In this document: positions 3,166 to 62,567 of the stretch, piece after piece | Position numbering within the stretch: the first letter of the stretch is position 1 | Layout: each line of letters begins with the position of its first letter | Source: Spirochaetes bacterium ADurb.Bin133 | GTDB lineage: Bacteria; Spirochaetota; GWE2-31-10; MWDO01 | Direction of reading: 5' to 3' | Length of the DNA stretch: 64,000 bases | NCBI GenBank assembly: GCA_002070605.1 | Contig: MWDO01000002.1 | Coordinates: forward strand, 40,723 to 104,722 | Notes under the pieces: model-generated | What the model was told of the DNA's origin: nothing | Seen by the model: the letters and a program-made list of their open reading frames with translations, nothing else | The model's database searches: none | Made by a program: the position numbers and the translations under genes

Positions 3166-3266
3166 CTATTAATTCCTGATATAGTTTCTTATCGGTTGCG
3201 CAAATTATAAGATTTAATTAAGTAGGAATATTTTTTAATAAATATCCCTTTTTGTAATAAAAAAGC

Positions 3267-3363
3267 TCTCCGTCGGTTTTTTTGGGCGTGGAAATTCGAC
3301 GCATATGAAACAAATATCTTTAAATAGTAATTTTTTTTATTTCCCAAAAAACCGACGGATTAC
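3267..3363. mobile_element. MITE-like repeat copy 1 (short variant, core degenerate, orientation B)
   Basis: CCGTCGGTTTTTTTGGG ... CCCAAAAAACCGACGG inverted arms around core GACGCATATGAAACAAATAT; flanked by near-identical ATAAAAAAGC / ATAAAAAAAGC direct repeats. Confidence 0.6.
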
Positions 3364-3398
3364 ATAAAAAAAGCGTCAAAAAATGACGCTTTTTTTAT
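3363..3398. terminator. rho-independent terminator downstream of rny (bidirectional form)
   Basis: AGCGTCA-aaaaa-TGACGCT hairpin with A-run 5' and T-run 3'. Confidence 0.65.
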
Positions 3399-4932: not shown

Positions 4933-5018
4933 CCTATCCTCCAGAAATATATTAATATTTCCATGTTAATTCAATTCTAAATTATTGTCAAGTAAATTTG
5001 TAAATATTTGAGACGCCC

Positions 5019-5078
5019 GCGGTTTCTTGAAGGAAAAAATTGACACATATGGAACAAATATTTTTAATTAGTAAATTA
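5019..5078 (+). promoter_or_regulatory. partial repeat copy 2 carrying candidate promoter TTGACA(5040-5045)-N17-TTTAAT(5063-5068) for ORF 5168
   Basis: core TTGACACATATGGAACAAATATTTTTAAT; the same arrangement is duplicated upstream of paralog at 60984-61499. Confidence 0.5.
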
Positions 5079-5167
5079 TTTATTATTTATTAAAAATTAT
5101 CCGAGTTTTTGTAAAGAGTTTTCTACTTTTAGTTGTTATATATATAAAAGAAAAAGGAGAAAATTTT

Positions 5168-5683
5168 ATGAAAAACAAAAAACATTTATTTCACTTTATA
5201 GTATCTGAATCTATGAATACCAATGTTATAGATTTTTTGCTAAAGGAGTTCAAAATTAATACGTTTAGCAAGTTATTTGAAACTATGTTTCGTCTCGTTA
5301 ACAAAAAAATCCCAAAAATGAAGAGAATAGTCGGAAATCATCGCTCCGAATACGCCGTTATAGATAGCTCCGACGATAAAAGAGTGGATAAATATCTTAG
5401 AATCAGCGAAGCGGACTATCTTCAAATAAAAAGATGGCATTCTTTGTATAACGAATTCGGTATGGCTTCGACGGTTCGCGATATTATCCTGTTTTTCTAT
5501 AACGGCGTTGTAAAATACGGGCTAGAAGGATTTCTTGAGCTTGTTGGCAAGAAATTGAAGGTTGATAAATTGAAAAACGACTTTTTGGATAAAATGACAC
5601 AACTGTTAAATATAACCGCTCGGAAACAGCTATTACACACGCTCGTAATCGAAAATTATCCCAAATACGTTTACTGTACTTAA
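5168..5683 (+). CDS. hypothetical protein, paralog family (171 aa), copy A
   Basis: complete ORF with AAGGAG SD; about 90% aa identity to ORF 60984-61499 on the other strand; no recognisable motif. Confidence 0.7.
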   Translation: MKNKKHLFHFIVSESMNTNVIDFLLKEFKINTFSKLFETMFRLVNKKIPKMKRIVGNHRSEYAVIDSSDDKRVDKYLRISEADYLQIKRWHSLYNEFGMASTVRDIILFFYNGVVKYGLEGFLELVGKKLKVDKLKNDFLDKMTQLLNITARKQLLHTLVIENYPKYVYCT

Positions 5684-6181
5684 AACTATTTGTCATTTTA
5701 TAAAAAACCGGCGAGGCGCCAAATTTATTCATAAAAACATTGACTTTAAATCTATTTTGCAATACAAGTATGCTGGATAGATGTTATGAAATTTTATAAA
5801 TTATTTTTATTTCTGATAATTCTTTTATTCGCTTTCCAACCCGCGTTTGTTAAAGAGAGCGCTTTTATGGATTTTTTCAAGATAAATATCGAGAATGAAT
5901 TAAGAGAGTCTCCTTTAAATAACTTTAATATTTTGGCAAATATAAGAATAACTAAATTATTAAAAATGTTTTTCTTATTTTTGTCTTCGTCTATAAAACA
6001 TATTATTACGGCTATTTCCTTTATTATTGTTTCAAAAATATTTTTTAATAAGATCTTAATACTCTATTCATTATTTTTGAGATCTCCCCCTATTATTTAA
6101 TATAAAAATATTTCATTATTTTCTTTTCGCTAACTTTAATCGATTTTTTTATTATTTGTTTTAAAAAAGGGGGAATTTATA

Positions 6182-6979: not shown

Positions 6980-7369
6980 TTAAAAGCGCGCTCTTGGAGG
7001 AGATCTTGAGTAAAGACGGAAAGATATGTCGAAAAAGTAATTGAGACCGATAAATATAATATTATTATATCTAAAACAAGATTGTTTAATTAAAGAAAAA
7101 ATACATGGGGGAACAAATAATCTTTGTTCGGCTCTTTTTTTTATAAAATAATTAGTCGAGAAATTTTCATTTTGTTTTATATGCGATAAAAAATATATCG
7201 ATTTTGATATAGATATAAATTCGTTAGGATATTGATATTTTTTAGTCCATTTCGGATATTTACCGTCTTCAAAAAGAGTAAAAATAAGAACAAAGATTAT
7301 TAACAAAAAAGGAAGAGCAAAATTAGATTTTATTGAAAGATTTTGTCTATTTAGGGCTTTAAATTTCAT
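6980..7369 (-). CDS. hypothetical membrane protein (129 aa)
   Basis: ORF with one TM segment; low complexity; uncertain. Confidence 0.3.
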   Translation of the reverse strand: MKFKALNRQNLSIKSNFALPFLLIIFVLIFTLFEDGKYPKWTKKYQYPNEFISISKSIYFLSHIKQNENFSTNYFIKKRAEQRLFVPPCIFSLIKQSCFRYNNIIFIGLNYFFDISFRLYSRSPPRARF

Positions 7370-7434
7370 TATCGCTATTTACGTAAAATTATTTTATACG
7401 AGCAAAATATTATAAAAAATATTAATAGTCAAGG

Positions 7435-7544
7435 GTAATCCGTCAGTTTTTTGAGGAATAAAAAATATTTGTTCCATATGTGTCATTTTTTTTGAGATAG
7501 AGTCGCGTTACCTATTTTCTTACCCCAAAAAACTGACGGGACAC
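7435..7544. mobile_element. MITE-like repeat copy 3 (long variant, orientation A)
   Basis: GTAATCCGTCAGTTTTTTGAGG ... CCCCAAAAAACTGACGGGACAC; core AAATATTTGTTCCATATGTGTCA; flanked by 8-bp direct repeat AGTCAAGG (7427-7434 and 7545-7552). Confidence 0.7.
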
Positions 7545-7587
7545 AGTCAAGGTTTTATAAAAAATAATGTTAAAATGTTGTATCAAA

Positions 7588-7994: not shown

Positions 7995-10178
7995 TTACCT
8001 TGATATAATTTTTGTAAAAACTCTACCGTTTTCGTCGTATATTTCAAATTTGATCGTTCGAATATCGTTTTTATATTCGGCTGATTCTTCGTCGTTAAAA
8101 TAAACCTCATAGTCCCCGTCGGATTTTTCTATAAAAATATTTAGATTAATAAATTTGCCTTTTTGAAAATCGTACGTTTCGCCGTCGTCGTCGTAATACA
8201 TATACGACGCTCTATCCGTTACAAAAGCAACCGCTAATAATTCGGTAATTTTTTTCTCTCCGACGTAATTTTGCGGACGCGTCAATACTACTATAGAATT
8301 TTCTTTAACGAAGGTTAACGTTTCGTCAAGTTCGCAATTAATAAAGTAACTTCCGGGATTATATATAGAAACGTCTCTGTCGTCGAAATTTTTTACCTTC
8401 CAACAGAGCCACTTTACATCCGGCAACGTTACGTATCTCCCTCCAGAATTTGGCGTATATATCGGCGCCGCCATAATCGATTCGCCGAACATAAATTGAT
8501 CCTCGATATTCTTTAGTATAGGATCGTCAAAAACAAAAGATACCGGAAGTATCAAACATCTAGAGTTGATAATTGATTTTAAATATTCCGAATAGATATA
8601 CGGTATCAATGCGTATCGAAATTTAATAATATCTCTGATAATGTCCGTAGTCGCGCTATCGAACGCCCAAGGTTCTTGATTTCTAGTTCCTAGAGCGGAG
8701 TGATTTCTAAATAACGGAGAAAAAATTCCAAGTTGCGACCACCTGATAACGAGTTCGGCGCTTGAGTTACACCCAAACCCGCCGATATCGGCCCCCGTAT
8801 AAAAAAAACCGCACATATTAAGAGATTGAAGCATCCTGATATTGACTATGATATGCTCCCACCAGCTTTGATTGTCCCCCATCCATATCGAAGTAAAGCG
8901 GTGAGCGCCGATATAACTGCTTCTTGATAATAAAAGGTATCTTTTATTTCCTAAAAGTTTTTTTAGTCCGTCGGAAGTAGCTAAAGCCATAAAAAATCCA
9001 TATAGATTATGTATTTTATCGTGGCAGATAACTTTCCCGTCGTCTAAATTGTGAAAAAAACTTTGATAATCTTCTCTTTTATTGGACAAACCGTTAACGG
9101 CGTCTTTAATCGAAAAAAAATCAAACCCGGGGTCTTTTTTCTCTTTGATTTTATCGACAAGAGAATAAAAATTTTTTAAACCGTCCGGAGTAAAGAATAT
9201 CGCGGGTTCGTTCATATCGTTCCAAAAAGCGCATATCCCCGACTTTACCATCTCCTCATATAATCCTCCCCACCACTCTCTGACTTTTGAGTTGGCAAAG
9301 TCGGGATAACATGTCGCTCCGGGCCAAACCGTTCCTACAAAATCTAAGCCGTTTTCTTTTTTACAGAAATATCCTTTGCTTTTTCCTTCTTCATAAACTT
9401 CATACCCGTCTTCGATTTTTACCCCCGGATCGATTATAGGAGCTATTTTAAATCCTTTTTCAAGCATTTTAGCTATAAAATCTTCAAAGTCGGGAAATTT
9501 ATTCTCGTCGACGGTAAAAACCTTATAATCCTTCATATAATCTATATCAAGATAGATAACGTCGCATGGTATGTCAAGCGATCTAAATTGATTGCCGATA
9601 GATTCTACCGTTTCCCTATTGGGATAACTCCACCTGCACTGTTGATAACCAAAAGCCCATTTTGGCGGTATATACGGAGTTCCGACAAGACTAAGAAAAG
9701 AGCCGATAATATCAATTTTGTTTTTTGATCTGAATATGTATAAATCAATATCCGTAGAGCTTACTTCGATAGAGAGTAAATTTGTATCCTTAAAGCCGGC
9801 GTCGATTTTTATTTCGGAAGGAGAGTCGATAAAAACCCCGACCGTTTCGTCGCCGTCGATAATAAAGAACGGATGCGAACCGTAGAGCGCTTCTTTTTCA
9901 GGAGTATGCAAAAAATCGTCGCTGGAATAGCACCTATATATCTTTCCTCGTTTATTTAACGAACCGAGATTTTCGCCGAGACCGTATATCGAGTCTCCGG
10001 CGGAGAGCGTTTTGTTGAAAACGACTTTATCAAGTCCGACGTTTTTATCAAAAAGGTAAATATCTTTAACCTCTTTAAAATTTATCTGATCGACGTCGAC
10101 AACTACCGCCCCTGTTTTGAAAGGGTCGCCAAATCTGAAAAGAGTAATGTTTTTAAAAATTTCATATTTTTTGATCAT
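7995..10178 (-). CDS. glycoside hydrolase family 31 alpha-glucosidase
   Basis: WNDMNEP catalytic nucleophile motif, GADIGGF, 727 aa. Confidence 0.88.
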   Translation of the reverse strand: MIKKYEIFKNITLFRFGDPFKTGAVVVDVDQINFKEVKDIYLFDKNVGLDKVVFNKTLSAGDSIYGLGENLGSLNKRGKIYRCYSSDDFLHTPEKEALYGSHPFFIIDGDETVGVFIDSPSEIKIDAGFKDTNLLSIEVSSTDIDLYIFRSKNKIDIIGSFLSLVGTPYIPPKWAFGYQQCRWSYPNRETVESIGNQFRSLDIPCDVIYLDIDYMKDYKVFTVDENKFPDFEDFIAKMLEKGFKIAPIIDPGVKIEDGYEVYEEGKSKGYFCKKENGLDFVGTVWPGATCYPDFANSKVREWWGGLYEEMVKSGICAFWNDMNEPAIFFTPDGLKNFYSLVDKIKEKKDPGFDFFSIKDAVNGLSNKREDYQSFFHNLDDGKVICHDKIHNLYGFFMALATSDGLKKLLGNKRYLLLSRSSYIGAHRFTSIWMGDNQSWWEHIIVNIRMLQSLNMCGFFYTGADIGGFGCNSSAELVIRWSQLGIFSPLFRNHSALGTRNQEPWAFDSATTDIIRDIIKFRYALIPYIYSEYLKSIINSRCLILPVSFVFDDPILKNIEDQFMFGESIMAAPIYTPNSGGRYVTLPDVKWLCWKVKNFDDRDVSIYNPGSYFINCELDETLTFVKENSIVVLTRPQNYVGEKKITELLAVAFVTDRASYMYYDDDGETYDFQKGKFINLNIFIEKSDGDYEVYFNDEESAEYKNDIRTIKFEIYDENGRVFTKIISR

Positions 10179-10191
10179 ATATTATCCTTTT

Positions 10192-10902
10192 TTAAGAGAT
10201 ATTTATTTTACTTTTACCGGAAATATATCCGTCGTAGCCGTTTTTTCTCAATATACACGCGGGACAAGCTCCGCACCCTTTGCCGTACGGCCGCATAGTC
10301 TCGACTCCGTTGTAACAAGTCATGGTTTTTAATAGAACGACGTCGAGACATCCCAGCTCTTCGGCTAACCGGAATTCATCCGACTTTGTAAGACGCATAA
10401 GGGGGGTATGTATCTCTAAGTTTTTACCCTCAAAATCGGTAGAGAGATTTAACGCTACCTGACACGCTTTGATAAAGACGTCCCTGCAATCGGCGTATCC
10501 CGAATAGTCCGTTTCGCATACCCCTATTACGAGATTCTGCGCGCCTATTGTCGACGCGTACCCCGCCGCTACGGTTAAAAAAAGCATATTTCTATAAGGA
10601 ACAAAACTTGACGGGAGGTTCGCGTCTAATTTGTGCTTTTCATTTACGTCGTCTTTTCCTATAAAAAGATTGGATATCAATATATCCTTTATAAAAGAGA
10701 GGTCGACGATCTTATGGCTTAAACTCAAGTCTAAACATATATTCTTTATTACGTCGAGTTCGATTTTGTGTTTTTGGTTGTAATCAAAAGATATAACGTC
10801 TACCTGTTTGAAACGTCGTAGAGCCCAATAAAGCGACACCGTAGAATCCATGCCTCCGCTTGCCAATACAAGAGCGCTCTCGTTTGCAAGAAGATTTATC
10901 AT
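10192..10902 (-). CDS. queC: 7-cyano-7-deazaguanine synthase
   Basis: LASGGMDSTV PP-loop, C-terminal CGACPAC zinc motif, 236 aa. Confidence 0.9.
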   Translation of the reverse strand: MINLLANESALVLASGGMDSTVSLYWALRRFKQVDVISFDYNQKHKIELDVIKNICLDLSLSHKIVDLSFIKDILISNLFIGKDDVNEKHKLDANLPSSFVPYRNMLFLTVAAGYASTIGAQNLVIGVCETDYSGYADCRDVFIKACQVALNLSTDFEGKNLEIHTPLMRLTKSDEFRLAEELGCLDVVLLKTMTCYNGVETMRPYGKGCGACPACILRKNGYDGYISGKSKINIS

Positions 10903-18643: not shown

Positions 18644-19603
18644 TCAGTTTCGTATGATCTCAAACCCTTTATACAAAAATGGGGAGTAATACAACTCGTC
18701 CGCTACTATTAAAGTTTTTTTAATAGTAGATATATAACTCTCCAATTTAGCCGCCGCTATATCTTGGTTGTAAAAATAAATAGTCTTATAATACGATTTG
18801 ACGAAGTTGTAAAGCCCCGACGAAGACCAATCTATAACCGACGAATTCGTATCTAAGTTTATACCCAACTCATTATAAATCCTCCAAACGACTTTAGTAC
18901 AATACCACCAGTAGTTATCTTCCTTAGTCGTCGCCGAAAAAATATTCGCAAAATTATTAAAAAATCCGTATCTCATATTGGTATTTCTCGCGTCGCAGTA
19001 ATAATCCATTTTTTTTTGAGATAAATCAAGTTTATTTTTATCTATATAACTGCGCGAATATAAAACGGCGACGTTAGGCTTACGCATCCATTGATTTGGA
19101 GTTTCAAAGCCGGCGCCTTTTATTACGGCGCTATGCAGACACGGAGAGTCCAGATTAGTCGGGTCAAATTTATCCAGATCGAGCGTCGCCGCGTGATAGT
19201 ATTTGCCTCTCGTCGATTTGGGAGAGACGTATGTAATAATAGCGGACAAAATCCCGTCGTAACCCCCGCTAAGATACACCGCTCCGTCTTTATTGAATGG
19301 AAGAGAGCTAATCGGAGAGTAACTCCCTTCGCCGGACAATCTATCGATCGCGGCGTTTTTCTCCATAATAAAATTTTCATAAAGATCGGAATTATATTTT
19401 CCATCATACTCTTGGAGTAGATTTTCAAACTCCTCTTCAACTTTTTCATCTCCCTCTTGAAAAGCTCTTGAGTAAAGTTCGAACATTTTTGACACTTCGG
19501 CATTGAGAGTTTCTTCTTCGGCCGTCTCATTTTCGTCAAAAACGTTTGTCCGACAAGATATCAAAGCTAACGTAAGCGCGATAAATAGTAATACTTTTTT
19601 CAT
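18644..19603 (-). CDS. hypothetical lipoprotein
   Basis: signal peptide with LISC lipobox; 319 aa. Confidence 0.5.
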   Translation of the reverse strand: MKKVLLFIALTLALISCRTNVFDENETAEEETLNAEVSKMFELYSRAFQEGDEKVEEEFENLLQEYDGKYNSDLYENFIMEKNAAIDRLSGEGSYSPISSLPFNKDGAVYLSGGYDGILSAIITYVSPKSTRGKYYHAATLDLDKFDPTNLDSPCLHSAVIKGAGFETPNQWMRKPNVAVLYSRSYIDKNKLDLSQKKMDYYCDARNTNMRYGFFNNFANIFSATTKEDNYWWYCTKVVWRIYNELGINLDTNSSVIDWSSSGLYNFVKSYYKTIYFYNQDIAAAKLESYISTIKKTLIVADELYYSPFLYKGFEIIRN

Positions 19604-19765
19604 AATAATCTCCTCTTTGTTATTTATATATAAATAACAACTAAAAGTTGATTTCGTTATACAGATTTTACAAAAATTAATTAATTATTTTTATGTTAAT
19701 ATTTATGTTAATATAAAGATAAAAAGCCGAACGCAATAAATTAACGCCAAAATTTTTAAGAAATT

Positions 19766-39269: not shown

Positions 39270-39313
39270 TGTTTTATATGCGTCAATTTTCCTCTCCTAA
39301 AAAACCGGCGGGT
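39270..39313. repeat. partial MITE-like repeat copy 8 (core + one arm)
   Basis: TTTATATGCGTCAATTTTCCTCTCCTAAAAAACCGGCGGG matches core plus short-variant arm. Confidence 0.5.
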
Positions 39314-39393
39314 TATTTTTGATTTTCAATATTTTCTTGACTTATTTTCTAAAATATATTTTATTATTTATTCGATTATAAAAGGAATAAAAA

Positions 39394-40430: not shown

Positions 40431-41819
40431 ATGGAGTCAATAAAAAGATTATTCATAGACCCGTCTAAGTTTTACAATAAAAATATTGAAGTTTCCGGTT
40501 GGATAAGAACGATAAGAGATTCAAAGTCGTTTGGTTTTATAGAGATTAATGACGGCTCGTTTTTTAAAAATCTTCAAATTGTAGCGGACGAGAAAGATAC
40601 GTCTAATTATCAAGAAGTATTAAAACTATCTATTGGTTCCGCCATAAGCGTTCAGGGAATATTATTGGAAACCCCTAACGCAAAGCAGCCGTTTGAACTT
40701 AGAGCCAGTTCAATAACAATCGAAGGTTATTCGGCAAACGACTATCCTTTGCAAAAGAAAAAACACTCTTTTGAATTTCTAAGAACAATAGCTCATTTGC
40801 GACCGAGAACAAATACCTTCTCCGCGGTTTTTAGAATTCGATCGGTAGCCTCCTACGCAATACATAAATTTTTTCAAGATAGAGGCTTTGTTTACGTTCA
40901 AACTCCGATAATTACAACCAGCGATTGCGAAGGCGCGGGTCAGATGTTCAGAGTAACTACGCTGGATCTTAATAACGTTCCCAAAAACAAAAATTCAACA
41001 GTGGATTATTCCAAAGATTTTTTTGGTAAAGAGACCAGTTTGACTGTCAGCGGTCAATTAGCCGGCGAAGCTTACGCAATGGCGTTTAAAAATATATATA
41101 CGTTCGGTCCAACTTTTAGAGCGGAAAACTCAAATACGGCAAGACATGCGGCTGAATTTTGGATGATTGAACCTGAAATCGCCTTTGCAGATCTTAACGA
41201 CGATATGGCGCTCGCCGAGGATATGATAAAGTATATAATTAATTATGTTTTAGAAAATTGTCCCGAGGAAATGAAATTTTTCAACGATTTTATAGATAAT
41301 TCGGTTTTAGATAGATTAAACAATATCGTTAGTTCTAAATTCGGCGTTATAACCTACACAGAAGCCGTAGACCTGCTAAAAAAAGAGTCTGCTACTTTTG
41401 AATATCCCGTAGAATGGGGTATAGACCTTCAAACGGAGCATGAGAAATATTTGACGGAAAAGATTTTCAAAAAACCTCTTTTTGTTATTAATTATCCAAA
41501 AGAGATCAAGGCGTTTTATATGCGTCAAAACGACGACGGTAAAACGGTAGCCGCTATGGATCTGTTAGTCCCCGGCGTCGGAGAAATTATAGGGGGCAGT
41601 CAAAGAGAAGAAAGAATTGATATTCTTGAAAAAAAATTATCAGATTTTGATCTAAAGAAAGAAGATTACTGGTGGTATTTGGACTTGAGAAAATACGGCG
41701 GAGTCAAACATTGCGGATTTGGTTTAGGATTTGAAAGAATGATAATGTATCTTACCGGTATGACTAACATTAGAGACGTTATTTCTTTTCCGCGAACTAC
41801 TAAACAAGCTGATTTTTAA
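40431..41819 (+). CDS. asnS: asparagine--tRNA ligase
   Basis: OB anticodon domain then class II motifs ([21 protein letters not shown]); 462 aa. Confidence 0.9.
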
Positions 41820-53432: not shown

Positions 53433-53448
53433 ATATAATAGCGCTGCT

Positions 53449-53550
53449 CCGTCGGTTTTTTGGGGAATAAAAAATATTTGTTCCATATGCGTCGAATTTT
53501 TTTGAAACAGGCTCGCGTTGTCTATTTCTTTACCCCAAAAAACTGACGAG
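53449..53550. mobile_element. MITE-like repeat copy 4 (long variant, orientation A)
   Basis: CCGTCGGTTTTTTGGGG ... CCCCAAAAAACTGACGAG; core AAATATTTGTTCCATATGCGTCG. Confidence 0.65.
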
Positions 53551-53656
53551 CTACTTAAAATAAATTATTTAATCTTGACATAAATTGTATAAAAATGGTA
53601 TAATTCTTTTCTTTAATGGAAATAACAATTAAGTTTATAAAATATAGGAGATAAAT

Positions 53657-58770: not shown

Positions 58771-58773
58771 AGT

Positions 58774-58870
58774 CCCCTGTCAGTTTTTTTGGATGGGGAA
58801 ATGACACATATGGAACAAATATTTTTAATTATTAAATTATTTTTTATTCCCCAAAAAACCGGCGGGATAC
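58774..58870. mobile_element. MITE-like repeat copy 5 (short variant, orientation B) with candidate outward promoter ATGACA-N17-TTTAAT (58801-58829)
   Basis: CCCCTGTCAGTTTTTTTGGATGGGG ... CCCCAAAAAACCGGCGGG; core TGACACATATGGAACAAATATTTTTAAT; ORF 58881 begins 11 nt after the element. Confidence 0.65.
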
Positions 58871-58880
58871 GCGAATAAAA

Positions 58881-59882
58881 ATGAAAAAAATATTGTCTTT
58901 CTTAATTTTGATTTATTTCGTTTCATTTATCTGTAGCGAAGAAAATCCGAAAGCGTATATAGGCGTCTCTTCGCCTTTTATGAAAACGGACAACGCCACT
59001 GCGAAATTTTTTAATAAACAATTTATTTTTGAATTTTTATCGAATGAGACCGAAGTTAAATATAATTTTGTAATTTTAAACGATTATGAGACTACAAATA
59101 ACGACGAGTTTTATCGGTTGATCAAAAAAGAGGCTTTCGAAAAGCAAATTGATTATATACTATACGGCGAAACATATACAATTAATAATAGCGTAATACT
59201 TAAATGTTCCTTAATAAATCCATACGACGATTCTATTTTATTTATGAAAAATTTTAGGTCAAAGAACGATTATACTATAAACGATTTTCTTACGACAGTT
59301 TCAATTGAATTATTTAAAATATTAAATAATTCTACGTTGACGATTATTAAACAAAAGAAAGCGATCGTCAAAGACGCAAAAGAAGACGACGACTTATCCT
59401 TAGAAATAAAAGCGAATACAAAACATGAAATAATGGTTTTTAACGGCTTTTTAAAAACTACTCCAAGGGTTATCTCGTTTGTACATAGTTTTTATGGATA
59501 TTATTTTTCCCCGATTAATTTTTTTTCATTGGGCGGAGGTTTGTTCTGGGGATTTGGAATAAACGACGATAGATTATTATTTAATTATAGTATCGATAGC
59601 TCTAAAAGTTTCTTTATCGGGACTAGTACCGGAATTAGTTTTCATATTTCAGGATATGCGGTGGAGCCCTTTGTCGGATTAAAAATTGAATTGTGTTATA
59701 CTATAGATAAATATCTGGATTTATATATTCCGATAGAGACCGGTATAAAAATTCACATAAGGAAAATGAATTTTTTTAGTATATACAACTCTTTTCAGTT
59801 TACCGCTTATAATTTGTTTAACTATAAATGGGAAAACGTATATATCATAGGAATAAATATTGGATATGTTAAAAAAATATAA
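58881..59882 (+). CDS. secreted hypothetical protein (333 aa)
   Basis: signal peptide MKKILSFLILIYFVSFICS; no homology recognised. Confidence 0.5.
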   Translation: MKKILSFLILIYFVSFICSEENPKAYIGVSSPFMKTDNATAKFFNKQFIFEFLSNETEVKYNFVILNDYETTNNDEFYRLIKKEAFEKQIDYILYGETYTINNSVILKCSLINPYDDSILFMKNFRSKNDYTINDFLTTVSIELFKILNNSTLTIIKQKKAIVKDAKEDDDLSLEIKANTKHEIMVFNGFLKTTPRVISFVHSFYGYYFSPINFFSLGGGLFWGFGINDDRLLFNYSIDSSKSFFIGTSTGISFHISGYAVEPFVGLKIELCYTIDKYLDLYIPIETGIKIHIRKMNFFSIYNSFQFTAYNLFNYKWENVYIIGINIGYVKKI

Positions 59883-60951: not shown

Positions 60952-60983
60952 AGCCGTATCCTGTCGATTTCTTGCGAAAAAAA

Positions 60984-61499
60984 TTACGCGCAGTAAACGT
61001 ATCTGGGATAATTTTCGATTACGAGGGCGTATAACAGCTGTTTTCGAGCGGTTATATTCAACAGTTGTGTCATTTTACCCAAAAAGTCGTTTTTCAACTT
61101 ATCAATCCTTAATTTCTTGCCAACAAGCTCAAGAAATCCTTCCAACCCGTGTTTTGTAACGCCGTTATAAAAAAACAGTATAATATCTCGAACCGTCGAA
61201 GCCATACCGAATTCGTTATAAAAATAATGCCATCTTTTAAGTTGTATATAGTCCGCTTCGCTGATCCTAAGGTATTTATCCAACCTTTTATCGTCGGAGC
61301 TATCTATAACGGAGTATTCGGAGCGATGATTTCCTATTATTCTTTTCATTTTTGGCATTTTTTTGTTAATAAGGCGAAACATCGTTTCAAACAGTTTACT
61401 GAACGTATTAATTTTGAACTCTTTTAGTAAGAAATCTATGACGTTACTATTCATAGATTCAGACACTATAAAGTGAAATAAATGTTTTTTGTTTTTCAT
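60984..61499 (-). CDS. hypothetical protein, paralog family (171 aa), copy B
   Basis: about 90% aa identity to ORF 5168-5683 including identical MKNKKHLFHFIVSESMN N-terminus; same SD and leader. Confidence 0.7.
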   Translation of the reverse strand: MKNKKHLFHFIVSESMNSNVIDFLLKEFKINTFSKLFETMFRLINKKMPKMKRIIGNHRSEYSVIDSSDDKRLDKYLRISEADYIQLKRWHYFYNEFGMASTVRDIILFFYNGVTKHGLEGFLELVGKKLRIDKLKNDFLGKMTQLLNITARKQLLYALVIENYPRYVYCA

Positions 61500-61559
61500 A
61501 AAATTTTCTCCTTTTTCTTTTATATATATAACAACTAAAAGTAGAAAATTCTTTACAAA

Positions 61560-61650
61560 AACTCGGATAATTTTTTAGAAAATAACAAATATTTTGCTAG
61601 TTAAAACTATTTGTTCCATATGTGTCAATTTCTTTCCTCAAGAAACCTAC
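61560..61650 (-). promoter_or_regulatory. partial repeat copy 6 with candidate promoter for ORF 60984-61499 (TTGACA at 61623-61628, minus strand)
   Basis: reverse complement reads GAAATTGACACATATGGAACAAATAGTTTTAAC then a 100-nt leader almost identical to 5069-5167. Confidence 0.5.
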
Positions 61651-61754
61651 GGAACGCAAATCAAAAACAGAAATTAACTTTAATTTGAAATTAAGATATG
61701 CATTAAATATCCATATATAATAAGCGTATTTATAACGAGGGTAATTATCGTTTG

Positions 61755-62394: not shown

Positions 62395-62438
62395 CTTTAT
62401 AGTTTAAATGTTTCACGTGAAACATTTAAACTATAAAG
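62395..62438. repeat. perfect 44-bp palindrome centred on CACGTG (arms extend to about 29 bp if the MITE insertion is removed)
   Basis: CTTTATAGTTTAAATGTTTCAC|GTGAAACATTTAAACTATAAAG read directly. Confidence 0.8.
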
Positions 62439-62547
62439 TGTCCCGTCAGTTTTTTGGGGAATAGAAAATATCTGTTTCATATGTGTCAATTTTTTTGAGA
62501 CAGACTCGCGTTATCCATTTCTTTACCCCAAAAAACTGACGGATTAC
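62439..62547. mobile_element. MITE-like repeat copy 7 (long variant) flanked by 10-bp direct repeat AACTATAAAG
   Basis: TGTCCCGTCAGTTTTTTGGGG ... CCCCAAAAAACTGACGGATTAC; direct repeats at 62429-62438 and 62548-62557. Confidence 0.75.
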
Positions 62548-62567
62548 AACTATAAAGATAAATACTC

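Follow-up and report, generated by a model that had tools for sequence, protein, structure and literature searches.

Why should a gene of no annotated family stand twice, on opposite strands, in one stretch of bacterial DNA, each time behind a piece of the same repeat? The stretch, which we call the window, is the 64,000 nucleotides (nt) from position 40,723 to 104,722 of contig MWDO01000002.1 (assembly GCA_002070605.1, Spirochaetes bacterium ADurb.Bin133); positions below count from its first letter unless another locus is named. Both genes encode proteins of 171 amino acids (aa). The answer that we favour, with a confidence a little above even, is that each gene belongs to a non-autonomous cassette framed by the ends of MITEs (miniature inverted-repeat transposable elements), and that its product is a tandem ribbon-helix-helix (RHH) regulator that would bind a core common to all these elements and repress or tune its own promoter and element-borne sites.

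A sequence-only reading of the window, made without database searches, had described a duplicated cassette whose 171-aa genes, on opposite strands, are about 90% alike, and this description holds. Cassette A spans ~5012-5720 on the plus strand and cassette B ~60955-61657 on the minus strand, with a DNA identity of 89-90%. Open reading frame (ORF) 5168-5683 (+) and ORF 60984-61499 (-) are both present, and their products agree at 152 of 171 residues (89%, E 4e-119). The DNA alignment stays at ~89-90% from GGTTTCTTGA (5021 in A, 61647 in B) through the stop codons; the flanks are unrelated and at background level. A 40-nt pattern spanning the upstream repeat core has exact matches in the window at the A and B sites only, where shuffles expect 0. 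Twelve contigs carry the exact protein of copy A and at least 23 carry that of copy B, in both cases from independent JGI, ENA and NCBI assemblies. The neighbours of each copy are constant across these contigs: copy A stands with RNase Y, adenosine deaminase and PTS EIIA, copy B with AMMECR1 and seryl-tRNA synthetase. Within the last 73 nt before the ATG, a single base differs between the two copies. This near-identity covers 5095-5210 and 61457-61572, that is, the 73 nt upstream with their one difference and the first ~37 nt of the ORF, compared with ~10% divergence elsewhere, and may reflect local gene conversion or a stronger constraint on the 5' end.

The limits of the unit were drawn from an alignment of 10 paralogous copies with 200-nt flanks, comprising the window pair and eight further loci. 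The cassette is ~705 bp long and ends in inverted arms of ~22 nt, (GTAAT)CCGTCGGTTTTTTGGGG and its complement. Homology across the 10 copies opens at the arm (GCGCC)CCGYCGGTTTTTTGGGG and runs through one or more copies of a core containing TGACACATATG, which lies 5-40 nt inside the left arm in every copy. It continues through a conserved AT-rich region ending TTGTTATATATAT...AAAGGAG...ATG and through the ORF, and ends ~15-35 nt past the stop codon at CCCCAAAAAACCGRCGG(GGCGC), the reverse complement of the left arm. Mean pairwise identity is 26% in the upstream and 34% in the downstream flanks, 56% in the left arm, 70% in the core, 84-85% in the two upstream non-coding segments, 88/93/77% at codon positions 1/2/3, and 46% in the tail plus right arm. 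Arms are found on both sides in most of the 10 copies; the right arm is degenerate in copy B and in two others.

These limits revise the first description of the unit in three respects. The end of similarity at the stop codon, first taken as the end of the unit, is true for the A/B pair only, where similarity fades because the right end of copy B is degenerate; among the 10 paralogues the unit reaches the arm CCCCAAAAAACCGRCGG ~35 nt beyond the stop. On the upstream side, similarity does begin near GGTTTCTTGA, as had been noted, but the unit starts a few bases earlier, inside the complementary arm CCGYCGGTTTTTTGGGG. Finally, the gene had been linked to the repeat by a shared promoter module alone, whereas the cassette sits within a repeat frame, with the arms of small elements on both sides. 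The parts of the two cassettes are as follows.

5012-5033, plus strand: left terminal inverted-repeat arm of cassette A, GACGC CCGCGGTTTCTTGAAGG, a diverged copy of GTAAT CCGTCGGTTTTTTGGGG, placed by the 10-paralogue alignment and the arm map.
5034-5060, plus strand: repeat core of cassette A, with the half-palindrome TGACACATATG at 5041-5051 and TTGACA at 5040-5045; a candidate operator, its role as a -35 box being doubtful.
5061-5167, plus strand: conserved non-coding region of cassette A, with TTGTTATATATAT at 5133-5145 (TGnTATATA, extended -10 type) and a ribosome-binding site, GGAG, at 5156-5159; its identity among paralogues is 84-85%, compared with 77% at third codon positions.
5168-5683, plus strand: gene of cassette A, for a predicted 171-aa single-chain tandem RHH protein (RHH1 at residues ~5-45, RHH2 at ~72-117, helical C-terminal region at 119-167).
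5684-5720, plus strand: 3' tail and right arm of cassette A, AACTATTTGTCATTTTATAAAAAACCGGCGAGGCGCC, the complement of the left arm.
61636-61657, minus strand: left arm of cassette B, CCGTAGGTTTCTTGAGG plus a 5-nt terminus.
61500-61635, minus strand: core and conserved promoter/leader region of cassette B, with TGACACATATG at 61627-61617.
60984-61499, minus strand: gene of cassette B, a 171-aa paralogue 89% identical to that of A.
60955-60983, minus strand: 3' tail and degenerate right arm of cassette B, CGCAAGAAATCGACAGG ATACG.

A terminator-like hairpin is called on the minus strand at the right arm of cassette A (5722-5708); on the coding strand, no terminator is predicted 3' of ORF A.

The cassette arms also bound five short elements in the window, together with one solo half. 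The small elements have inverted ends of ~22 nt, GTAATCCGTCAGTTTTTTGGGG, and fall into two length classes, one of 99 nt and one of 110-111 nt that holds an extra 29-nt module, GAGACAGACTCGCGTTATCCATTTCTTTA.

3265-3363, plus strand: 99-nt element made of arm, core (TTCGAC variant), remnants of the cassette 5' and 3' regions, and arm, with the exact 8-bp duplication ATAAAAAA on both sides.
58772-58870, plus strand: 99-nt element equal to the cassette minus promoter and ORF (88% identical to 5038-5096), with no clear target-site duplication; it ends ~10 nt before ORF 58881-59882 (+).
7435-7544, minus strand: 110-nt element with the 29-nt module, upstream of ORF 6980-7369 (-), flanked by the exact 8-bp duplication AGTCAAGG (7427-7434 and 7545-7552).
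53444-53554, minus strand: 111-nt element with the TTCGAC core variant and no clear target-site duplication.
62438-62547, minus strand: 110-nt element flanked by the exact 9-bp duplication AACTATAAA (62429-62437 and 62548-62556); it lies where the promoters of the AMMECR1 gene (-) and the seryl-tRNA synthetase gene (+) diverge.
~39270-39316, plus strand: solo right half of an element, with the core complement TATATGCGTCA and the arm TCCTAAAAAACCGGCGG.

With termini set at GT(A/G)(A/T)(T/C)-CCGTCAG..., exact target-site duplications of 8-9 bp flank three of the five window elements, and at least three more were seen in related loci (AATAGTCGC, AAATTATC and ATTTTTTTC). Such duplications mark the short elements as MITEs inserted by a staggered-cut transposase. 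Judged by their inverted repeats, target-site duplications, small size, many copies and lack of an ORF, the 99-111-nt elements are MITEs. Each locus of 12-64 kb holds 5-9 arms, against 0 in shuffles. A search of the whole window against Rfam returned no family, so that the leader and the small elements are not known RNAs. Elements with an intact (T)TGACA core stand just upstream of co-oriented genes; the pair with the TTCGAC core does not. Directly after element 3265-3363, a perfect hairpin at 3370-3397 carries A/T-runs on both sides (AAAAAAAGCGTCAAAAAATGACGCTTTTTTT) and is likely a bidirectional terminator for the RNase Y gene.

The 99-nt type connects these elements to the cassette. It consists, in order, of the left arm, the core, the first ~35 nt of the cassette upstream region, and the last ~10 nt of the cassette with the right arm, and its junction falls within TAAA(A)TTATTT, a direct repeat found in cassettes on either side of the promoter-plus-ORF segment. 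This form could be a cassette that lost its gene, or the gene segment could have been inserted into a short element with a ~10-bp duplication, and either form could have come first. With either origin, the cassette is a MITE frame containing a gene.

What does the gene encode? The window protein matched nothing in Pfam, NCBIfam, PHROGs or the PDB sequences, and the absence of any recognisable motif reported at first stands as far as family annotation goes. It does not extend to the fold: remote homologues, profile self-alignment, AlphaFold2 and structure search all point to a tandem RHH. Remote relatives of ~170 aa, 20-25% identical (P0110, P0112 and P0114-P0120), appear among 19 hits of a profile search described below, and 7 members of a 30-sequence family set match the Pfam family RHH_3 (best E 6.1e-7; P0112 scores 24.4 bits against a cut-off of 21.6), with others matching RHH_1, RHH_7, MatP_C or Arc. 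With hhalign, residues 1-58 align in register with residues 66-125 (strand, helix, helix; P = 4.3e-4). An AlphaFold2 model built from close paralogues alone was discarded (pLDDT 49.9); the model from the diverse 30-sequence alignment reached pLDDT 78.3 and pTM 0.75 and contains E5-13, H14-28 and H33-45, a linker, E72-80, H81-93 and H99-117, and four short helices up to residue 167. This model matches solved RHH proteins, TraY being the closest solved structure and DndE, NikR, Arc, AmrZ and VirC2 scoring lower. It holds two RHH units plus helices and no RNase-H-like, HUH, serine-recombinase or tyrosine-recombinase domain. As modelled, the product is a single-chain double RHH protein with a C-terminal helical extension and without a catalytic domain. 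Among paralogues, the residues of the two strands (HLFHFIV and DKYLRIS) show almost no variation, so the copies should recognise the same DNA; Y62, Y84 and K88 are invariant across the whole family, and H91 nearly so.

The single-chain tandem type of RHH (MetJ/Arc) protein is a rare architecture, known from TraY, AvtR and VirC2 and also from engineered single-chain Arc. The cassette protein shares 4-9% sequence identity with F-plasmid TraY, with AvtR from an archaeal lipothrixvirus, with VirC2 and with engineered single-chain Arc, and has no TraY Pfam hit. Unlike TraY, AvtR and VirC2, it comes without a relaxase, oriT, type IV secretion system or viral context, has an extra C-terminal helical region and exists in many chromosomal copies. 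We rejected a TraY-type relaxosome protein, given that the neighbours in nine paralogous loci are housekeeping genes (RNase Y, GAPDH, PGK, ABC transporter, Thx, AMMECR1) and not relaxase, oriT or transfer genes. An RHH-class type II antitoxin was rejected as well: the cassette has a single ORF, and the gene 3' of it differs at every locus.

The core offers a candidate target for such a protein. It is half of a 16-bp palindrome whose ideal form is TGACACATATGTGTCA, the half-site form being TGACACATATGGAACA. Full palindromes, TGAC(A/G)CATATG(T/C)GTCA, occur in related loci both singly and in arrays, at 2-5 per locus against ~0.01 in shuffles, and cores are over-represented at 5-14 per locus against 0.4-1.6. 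Intergenic arrays of 2-6 palindromes or halves were seen in three related loci, at 10294-10333 (two palindromes 24 bp apart) and 9095-9250 of locus L009, at 19250-19572 of L015 (six core copies within 19250-19492, one of them a full palindrome) and at 9686-9877 of L017. Some of these arrays lie outside complete elements, and they look like operator arrays or heavily nested element remnants. The protein co-occurs with the core TGACACATATG(TGTCA) and may bind it sequence-specifically through the beta-ribbon. A homologue 46% identical to the window protein provides a second hint. In another organism it is an ordinary single gene whose locus (L021) has no arms, and a perfect palindrome, TAACACATATGTGTTA, lies ~550 nt downstream of it at 5150-5165 (also at 1186-1201 of L022), ~100 nt upstream of the next large ORF (>1000 aa). 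Two of 300 shuffles equalled this palindrome, which is a post-hoc observation. It points to the palindrome as a cognate site of the protein that would be older than the capture of the gene by the MITE frame.

The promoter first proposed at the core is TTGACA (5040-5045), a 17-nt spacer and TTTAAT, followed by a 100-nt leader. Its -10 box is weak, lacks the conserved A2 and was not called by a promoter scan, and in 4 of the 10 paralogues the core is inverted and reads TCGACGCATATGTGTCAAT. A better-conserved candidate is TGTTATATA (5134-5142), of the extended -10 form, ~25 nt upstream of the ATG. The longer motif TTGTTATATATAT is also found upstream of the 46%-identical homologue, whose locus carries neither arms nor repeat. 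A 24-nt near-copy, ACTTTTAGTTGTTATTTATATATA, lies at 19628-19651 on the minus strand (motif at 19628-19643), preceded by TTTTTGTAAA and upstream of ORF 18644-19603, an unrelated gene with a signal-peptide-like start. Both observations support TGTTATATA as the candidate promoter of the gene. The inverted cores, the poor TTTAAT and the better conservation of TGTTATATA make TTGACA a doubtful -35 box with a 100-nt leader, and most of that leader is more likely to be promoter and operator DNA than 5' untranslated region.

How widespread is the cassette? A word-indexed search of 5.8 billion proteins gave 101 clusters at 90% identity, all from uncultured Spirochaetota metagenome-assembled genomes (MAGs) such as 'Spirochaetes bacterium ADurb.Bin133'. 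Identity to the query is 85-94% for most clusters, and partial genes cut off at contig ends are frequent among them. There are at least 50 paralogous loci, all within a narrow clade of Spirochaetota MAGs, and one MAG alone has at least nine locus tags (BWX91_00572, 01233, 01237, 01307, 01311, 01560, 01795, 01842 and 01895). Since paralogues differ by ~12% and the clusters are cut at 90%, a full-length cluster corresponds roughly to one locus, which implies tens of cassette copies per genome. The two copies first seen are accordingly a small part of the family, and the suggestion that the protein is lineage-specific is borne out: run exhaustively with HMMER against 1.84 billion representatives, the family profile found just 19 hits at E <= 1e-3, two of which (P0108 and P0119) are long repetitive proteins that we treated as spurious. 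A scan of genome contigs with the single window protein found no match, and a scan with the alignment as query found two loci, both in one MAG. The cassettes of a second species (L001 and L002) showed no flank overlap with the known loci and no orthologous placement. Around the gene of a remote homologue (L024), nothing recognisable was found. In the remote branch that matches RHH_3, one metagenome (JGI sample 3300075153) holds at least five distinct paralogues of 171-172 aa (P0116 and P0123-P0126). The two that were looked up have differing gene contexts, P0116 adjoining a methionine synthase gene and P0124 adjoining one for DUF1275; the family may have undergone multi-copy amplification more than once.

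Over the 45 pairs from the 10 paralogues, the Nei-Gojobori method gives a mean dN of 0.078, a mean dS of 0.62 and a ratio of 0.126. By these values the paralogues are old and each is maintained under purifying selection; all those examined are intact. Copies of a recently active insertion sequence are near-identical, and the dS among the paralogues contrasts with this.

Which enzyme could have moved the elements? Within locus L015, an IS630-like element lies between a pair of arms (1691-2995), with two ORFs (HTH_32/HTH_33 and DDE_3) that are probably joined by a frameshift. Its ends, TA|TACTCCCTTCCAAG..., abut the central TA of a core palindrome, which gives it the look of a nested insertion. 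In a second assembly the contig breaks off within the element, a sign that it is probably multi-copy. The IS630 family makes TA duplications. An IS630 / Tc1-mariner element was rejected as the parent of the arms, the duplications of the small elements being 8-9 bp of varied sequence and not TA. IS66 elements end in 20-30-bp inverted repeats starting GTAAGCG and make 8-bp direct repeats (PMC11946415). Our element termini, GTAAT / GTATC / GTGTC flanked by 8-9-bp duplications, fit this pattern loosely; the resemblance is limited to the first 4-5 bases, and no IS66-type transposase was seen, although no search was aimed at TnpC. We treat the likeness of the ends as a lead to the mobilising enzyme, not as a classification.

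Taken with known systems, most parts of this picture have parallels. The 99-110-nt elements resemble bacterial MITEs (Correia elements, RUP, TIMEs) in their ~22-nt inverted repeats, 8-9-bp duplications, high copy number, intergenic positions and possible promoter or operator content; here, by contrast, the long form encodes a predicted DNA-binding protein and not a transposase, and the near-palindromic core also occurs in arrays outside complete elements. Mobile insertion cassettes (MICs), such as MIC231 of Bacillus cereus and the qnrS2 MIC in Aeromonas (PMC5444012), are also short units with a non-transposase gene within the inverted repeats of a transposable-element family, accompanied by gene-less miniatures with the same ends. 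Known MICs carry assorted adaptive genes in few copies, whereas here a single kind of gene recurs throughout, with tens of copies in each genome, all under purifying selection; the cassettes have no clean target-site duplications, and no parent transposase element was found in the loci examined. The Arc protein of the IS605 family is an RHH protein that binds and represses the promoter of its own element (bioRxiv 10.64898/2026.09.24.754181). It, too, is encoded inside a transposable element, and its demonstrated role is the one we propose here, but Arc is a small single RHH that dimerises and is encoded beside TnpA/TnpB, whereas the cassette protein joins two RHH units and a helical tail of 50 residues in one chain and is encoded by the only gene of its element. 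The two show no sequence similarity beyond a weak Pfam Arc match (E 0.08) in a remote member.

By this parallel with Arc we propose a regulator role. The cassette runs from the left arm (GTAAT-CCGTCGGTTTTTTGGGG) through one or more cores derived from the 16-bp palindrome, a promoter region with TGnTATATA and a ribosome-binding site, the 171-aa gene and a tail to the right arm. It would be unable to move alone and would have spread long ago by a transposase acting in trans. The protein would bind the core present in every element and cassette, and binding would repress or tune transcription from the cassette promoter and from element-borne sites beside host genes; possibly, the protein also limits access of the transposase to the ends. 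The sequence-only reading had offered a passenger, a regulator or a factor acting on the repeats; a predicted DNA-binding fold in a cassette that would be non-autonomous fits this direction, the exact role being the one proposed above.

Several points weigh against this explanation. The window protein falls below every Pfam RHH threshold. The RHH assignment leans on predicted structure, with Foldseek E-values that are weak against the PDB (>=0.1), and on remote homologues, whose E-values with the family profile range from 1e-5 to 1e-3. The tie between protein and core consists of co-occurrence and one post-hoc observation in a distant homologue, and the window itself has half-sites only, a full palindrome being absent even when 2 mismatches are allowed. 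Neither the window nor ~130 kb of related loci (~190 kb in all) yielded an autonomous element with these arms. For cassette A and for the cassette at L015:4398, compared base by base, the flanks share just AT-rich partial similarity and no matching 8-9-mers; this fits the age of the cassettes, which may have transposed as whole units or could have spread by recombination into pre-existing small elements. Nor does the explanation account for purifying selection on each of tens of near-equivalent regulator genes.

One alternative shifts the emphasis from the element to its host, and we regard it as unlikely but worth keeping in view. The elements would no longer be, or not mainly be, selfish; they would deliver an operator, with a possible outward promoter, upstream of host genes, and the RHH protein would be the cognate transcription factor, amplified together with its sites, so that transposition would have joined many unrelated genes in one regulon. 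For three of the five small elements in the window, a co-oriented gene does start 10-107 nt downstream (ORF 58881 after 58772-58870, ORF 7369 after 7435-7544 and ORF 62336 after 62438-62547); for the two with the TTCGAC core, none does. Behind six of eight cassettes, a housekeeping gene in the same orientation (such as GAPDH, epimerase, ABC binding protein or ribosomal protein Thx) comes within ~150 nt, with no coding-strand terminator predicted after ORF A. Purifying selection acts on all paralogues, and the armless homologue has a similar palindrome ~100 nt upstream of a neighbouring gene. However, the counts are small: neither 3/5 nor 6/8 is significantly different from chance or from what a general preference for intergenic insertion would give; the TTGACA / TTT(A/T)AT promoter is poor and went uncalled by the scan. 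A regulon role of this kind would, moreover, overlap with the regulator explanation rather than exclude it.

A doubtful alternative makes the protein an accessory factor of transposition, an architectural protein that bends DNA beside the arms, in the style of TraY at oriT, for a transposase encoded elsewhere, the cassette being the master copy that carries specificity. TraY, the closest solved structure, binds near the nick site and assists the nuclease; the core is placed close inside the left arm throughout; and no long form of the element other than the cassette was seen, the short forms resembling its deletion derivatives. A like fold need not mean a like role, however, and the cassettes are old (dS ~0.6) and without clean target-site duplications. 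No partner enzyme was identified in the loci examined, and a homologue occurs as an ordinary single gene without arms.

It is improbable that no mobile element is involved and that a transcription-factor gene was simply copied by segmental duplication or recombination, the arms being common terminator-like or regulatory motifs. The age of the paralogues, their stable placement across many assemblies and the lack of clear target-site duplications at cassettes would suit such an ordinary family, and the arm does have a short GC stem followed by a T-run, one arm being called terminator-like. Against this, homology stops sharply at the inverted arms in all 10 copies, with unrelated flanks, and the same arms bound small elements with exact 8-9-bp duplications of unrelated target, which segmental duplication does not produce; the arm order in the elements, T-run then A-run, is not that of a terminator either.

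That the 171-aa protein is a new kind of transposase, making the cassette an autonomous minimal insertion sequence, is very hard to credit. The ORF is the sole one between the arms, the short elements could be taken for its deletion derivatives, the loci examined showed no other transposase with such ends, and Y62, Y84, K88 and, nearly, H91 are conserved family-wide; but the model consists of a pair of RHH units and further helices and lacks a DDE, HUH, serine or tyrosine catalytic domain, Pfam, NCBIfam and PHROGs give no transposase family, the copies are 10-15% diverged and not near-identical, and the homologue is a plain single-copy gene without arms. The chance that the duplication came from a duplicated or collapsed contig edge is negligible: the many public family members that are partial genes at contig ends show that the repeat does break assemblies, but ~10% of positions differ between the copies, their neighbourhoods are different and each internally consistent, and independent contigs of up to 100 kb (12 for A, at least 23 for B) reproduce each neighbourhood, which already refutes an artefact.

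Returning to the MITE-framed regulator cassette, its components are of known kinds, namely MITEs, passenger cassettes and transposon-borne RHH repressors, but the libraries and papers searched contain no description of them combined as here, in a MITE family that has as its only long form a cassette for a predicted single-chain double RHH protein, in tens of conserved copies. MITEs and their parent elements are normally linked by the transposase gene. Here, the only long form seen carries a predicted DNA-binding protein instead. A bolder version, which we consider a minority possibility, is that the master long form encodes a tandem RHH protein, not an enzyme, that recognises the core of the element itself. 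Either this protein would direct a nuclease, supplied in trans or by the host, to the ends, a split transposition with specificity apart from catalysis, or the element family would have spread a transcription factor and its operators as a self-propagating regulon.

For this uncultured digester spirochaete, we infer binding, expression and mobility alike. A protein family listed as hypothetical in every database can now be classed, by prediction, as a single-chain double RHH. If the protein binds the shared core, transposition would here have multiplied, in nature, a regulator along with the sites it binds, and, if true, it would provide a route to studying how mobile elements rewire bacterial transcription or police themselves.

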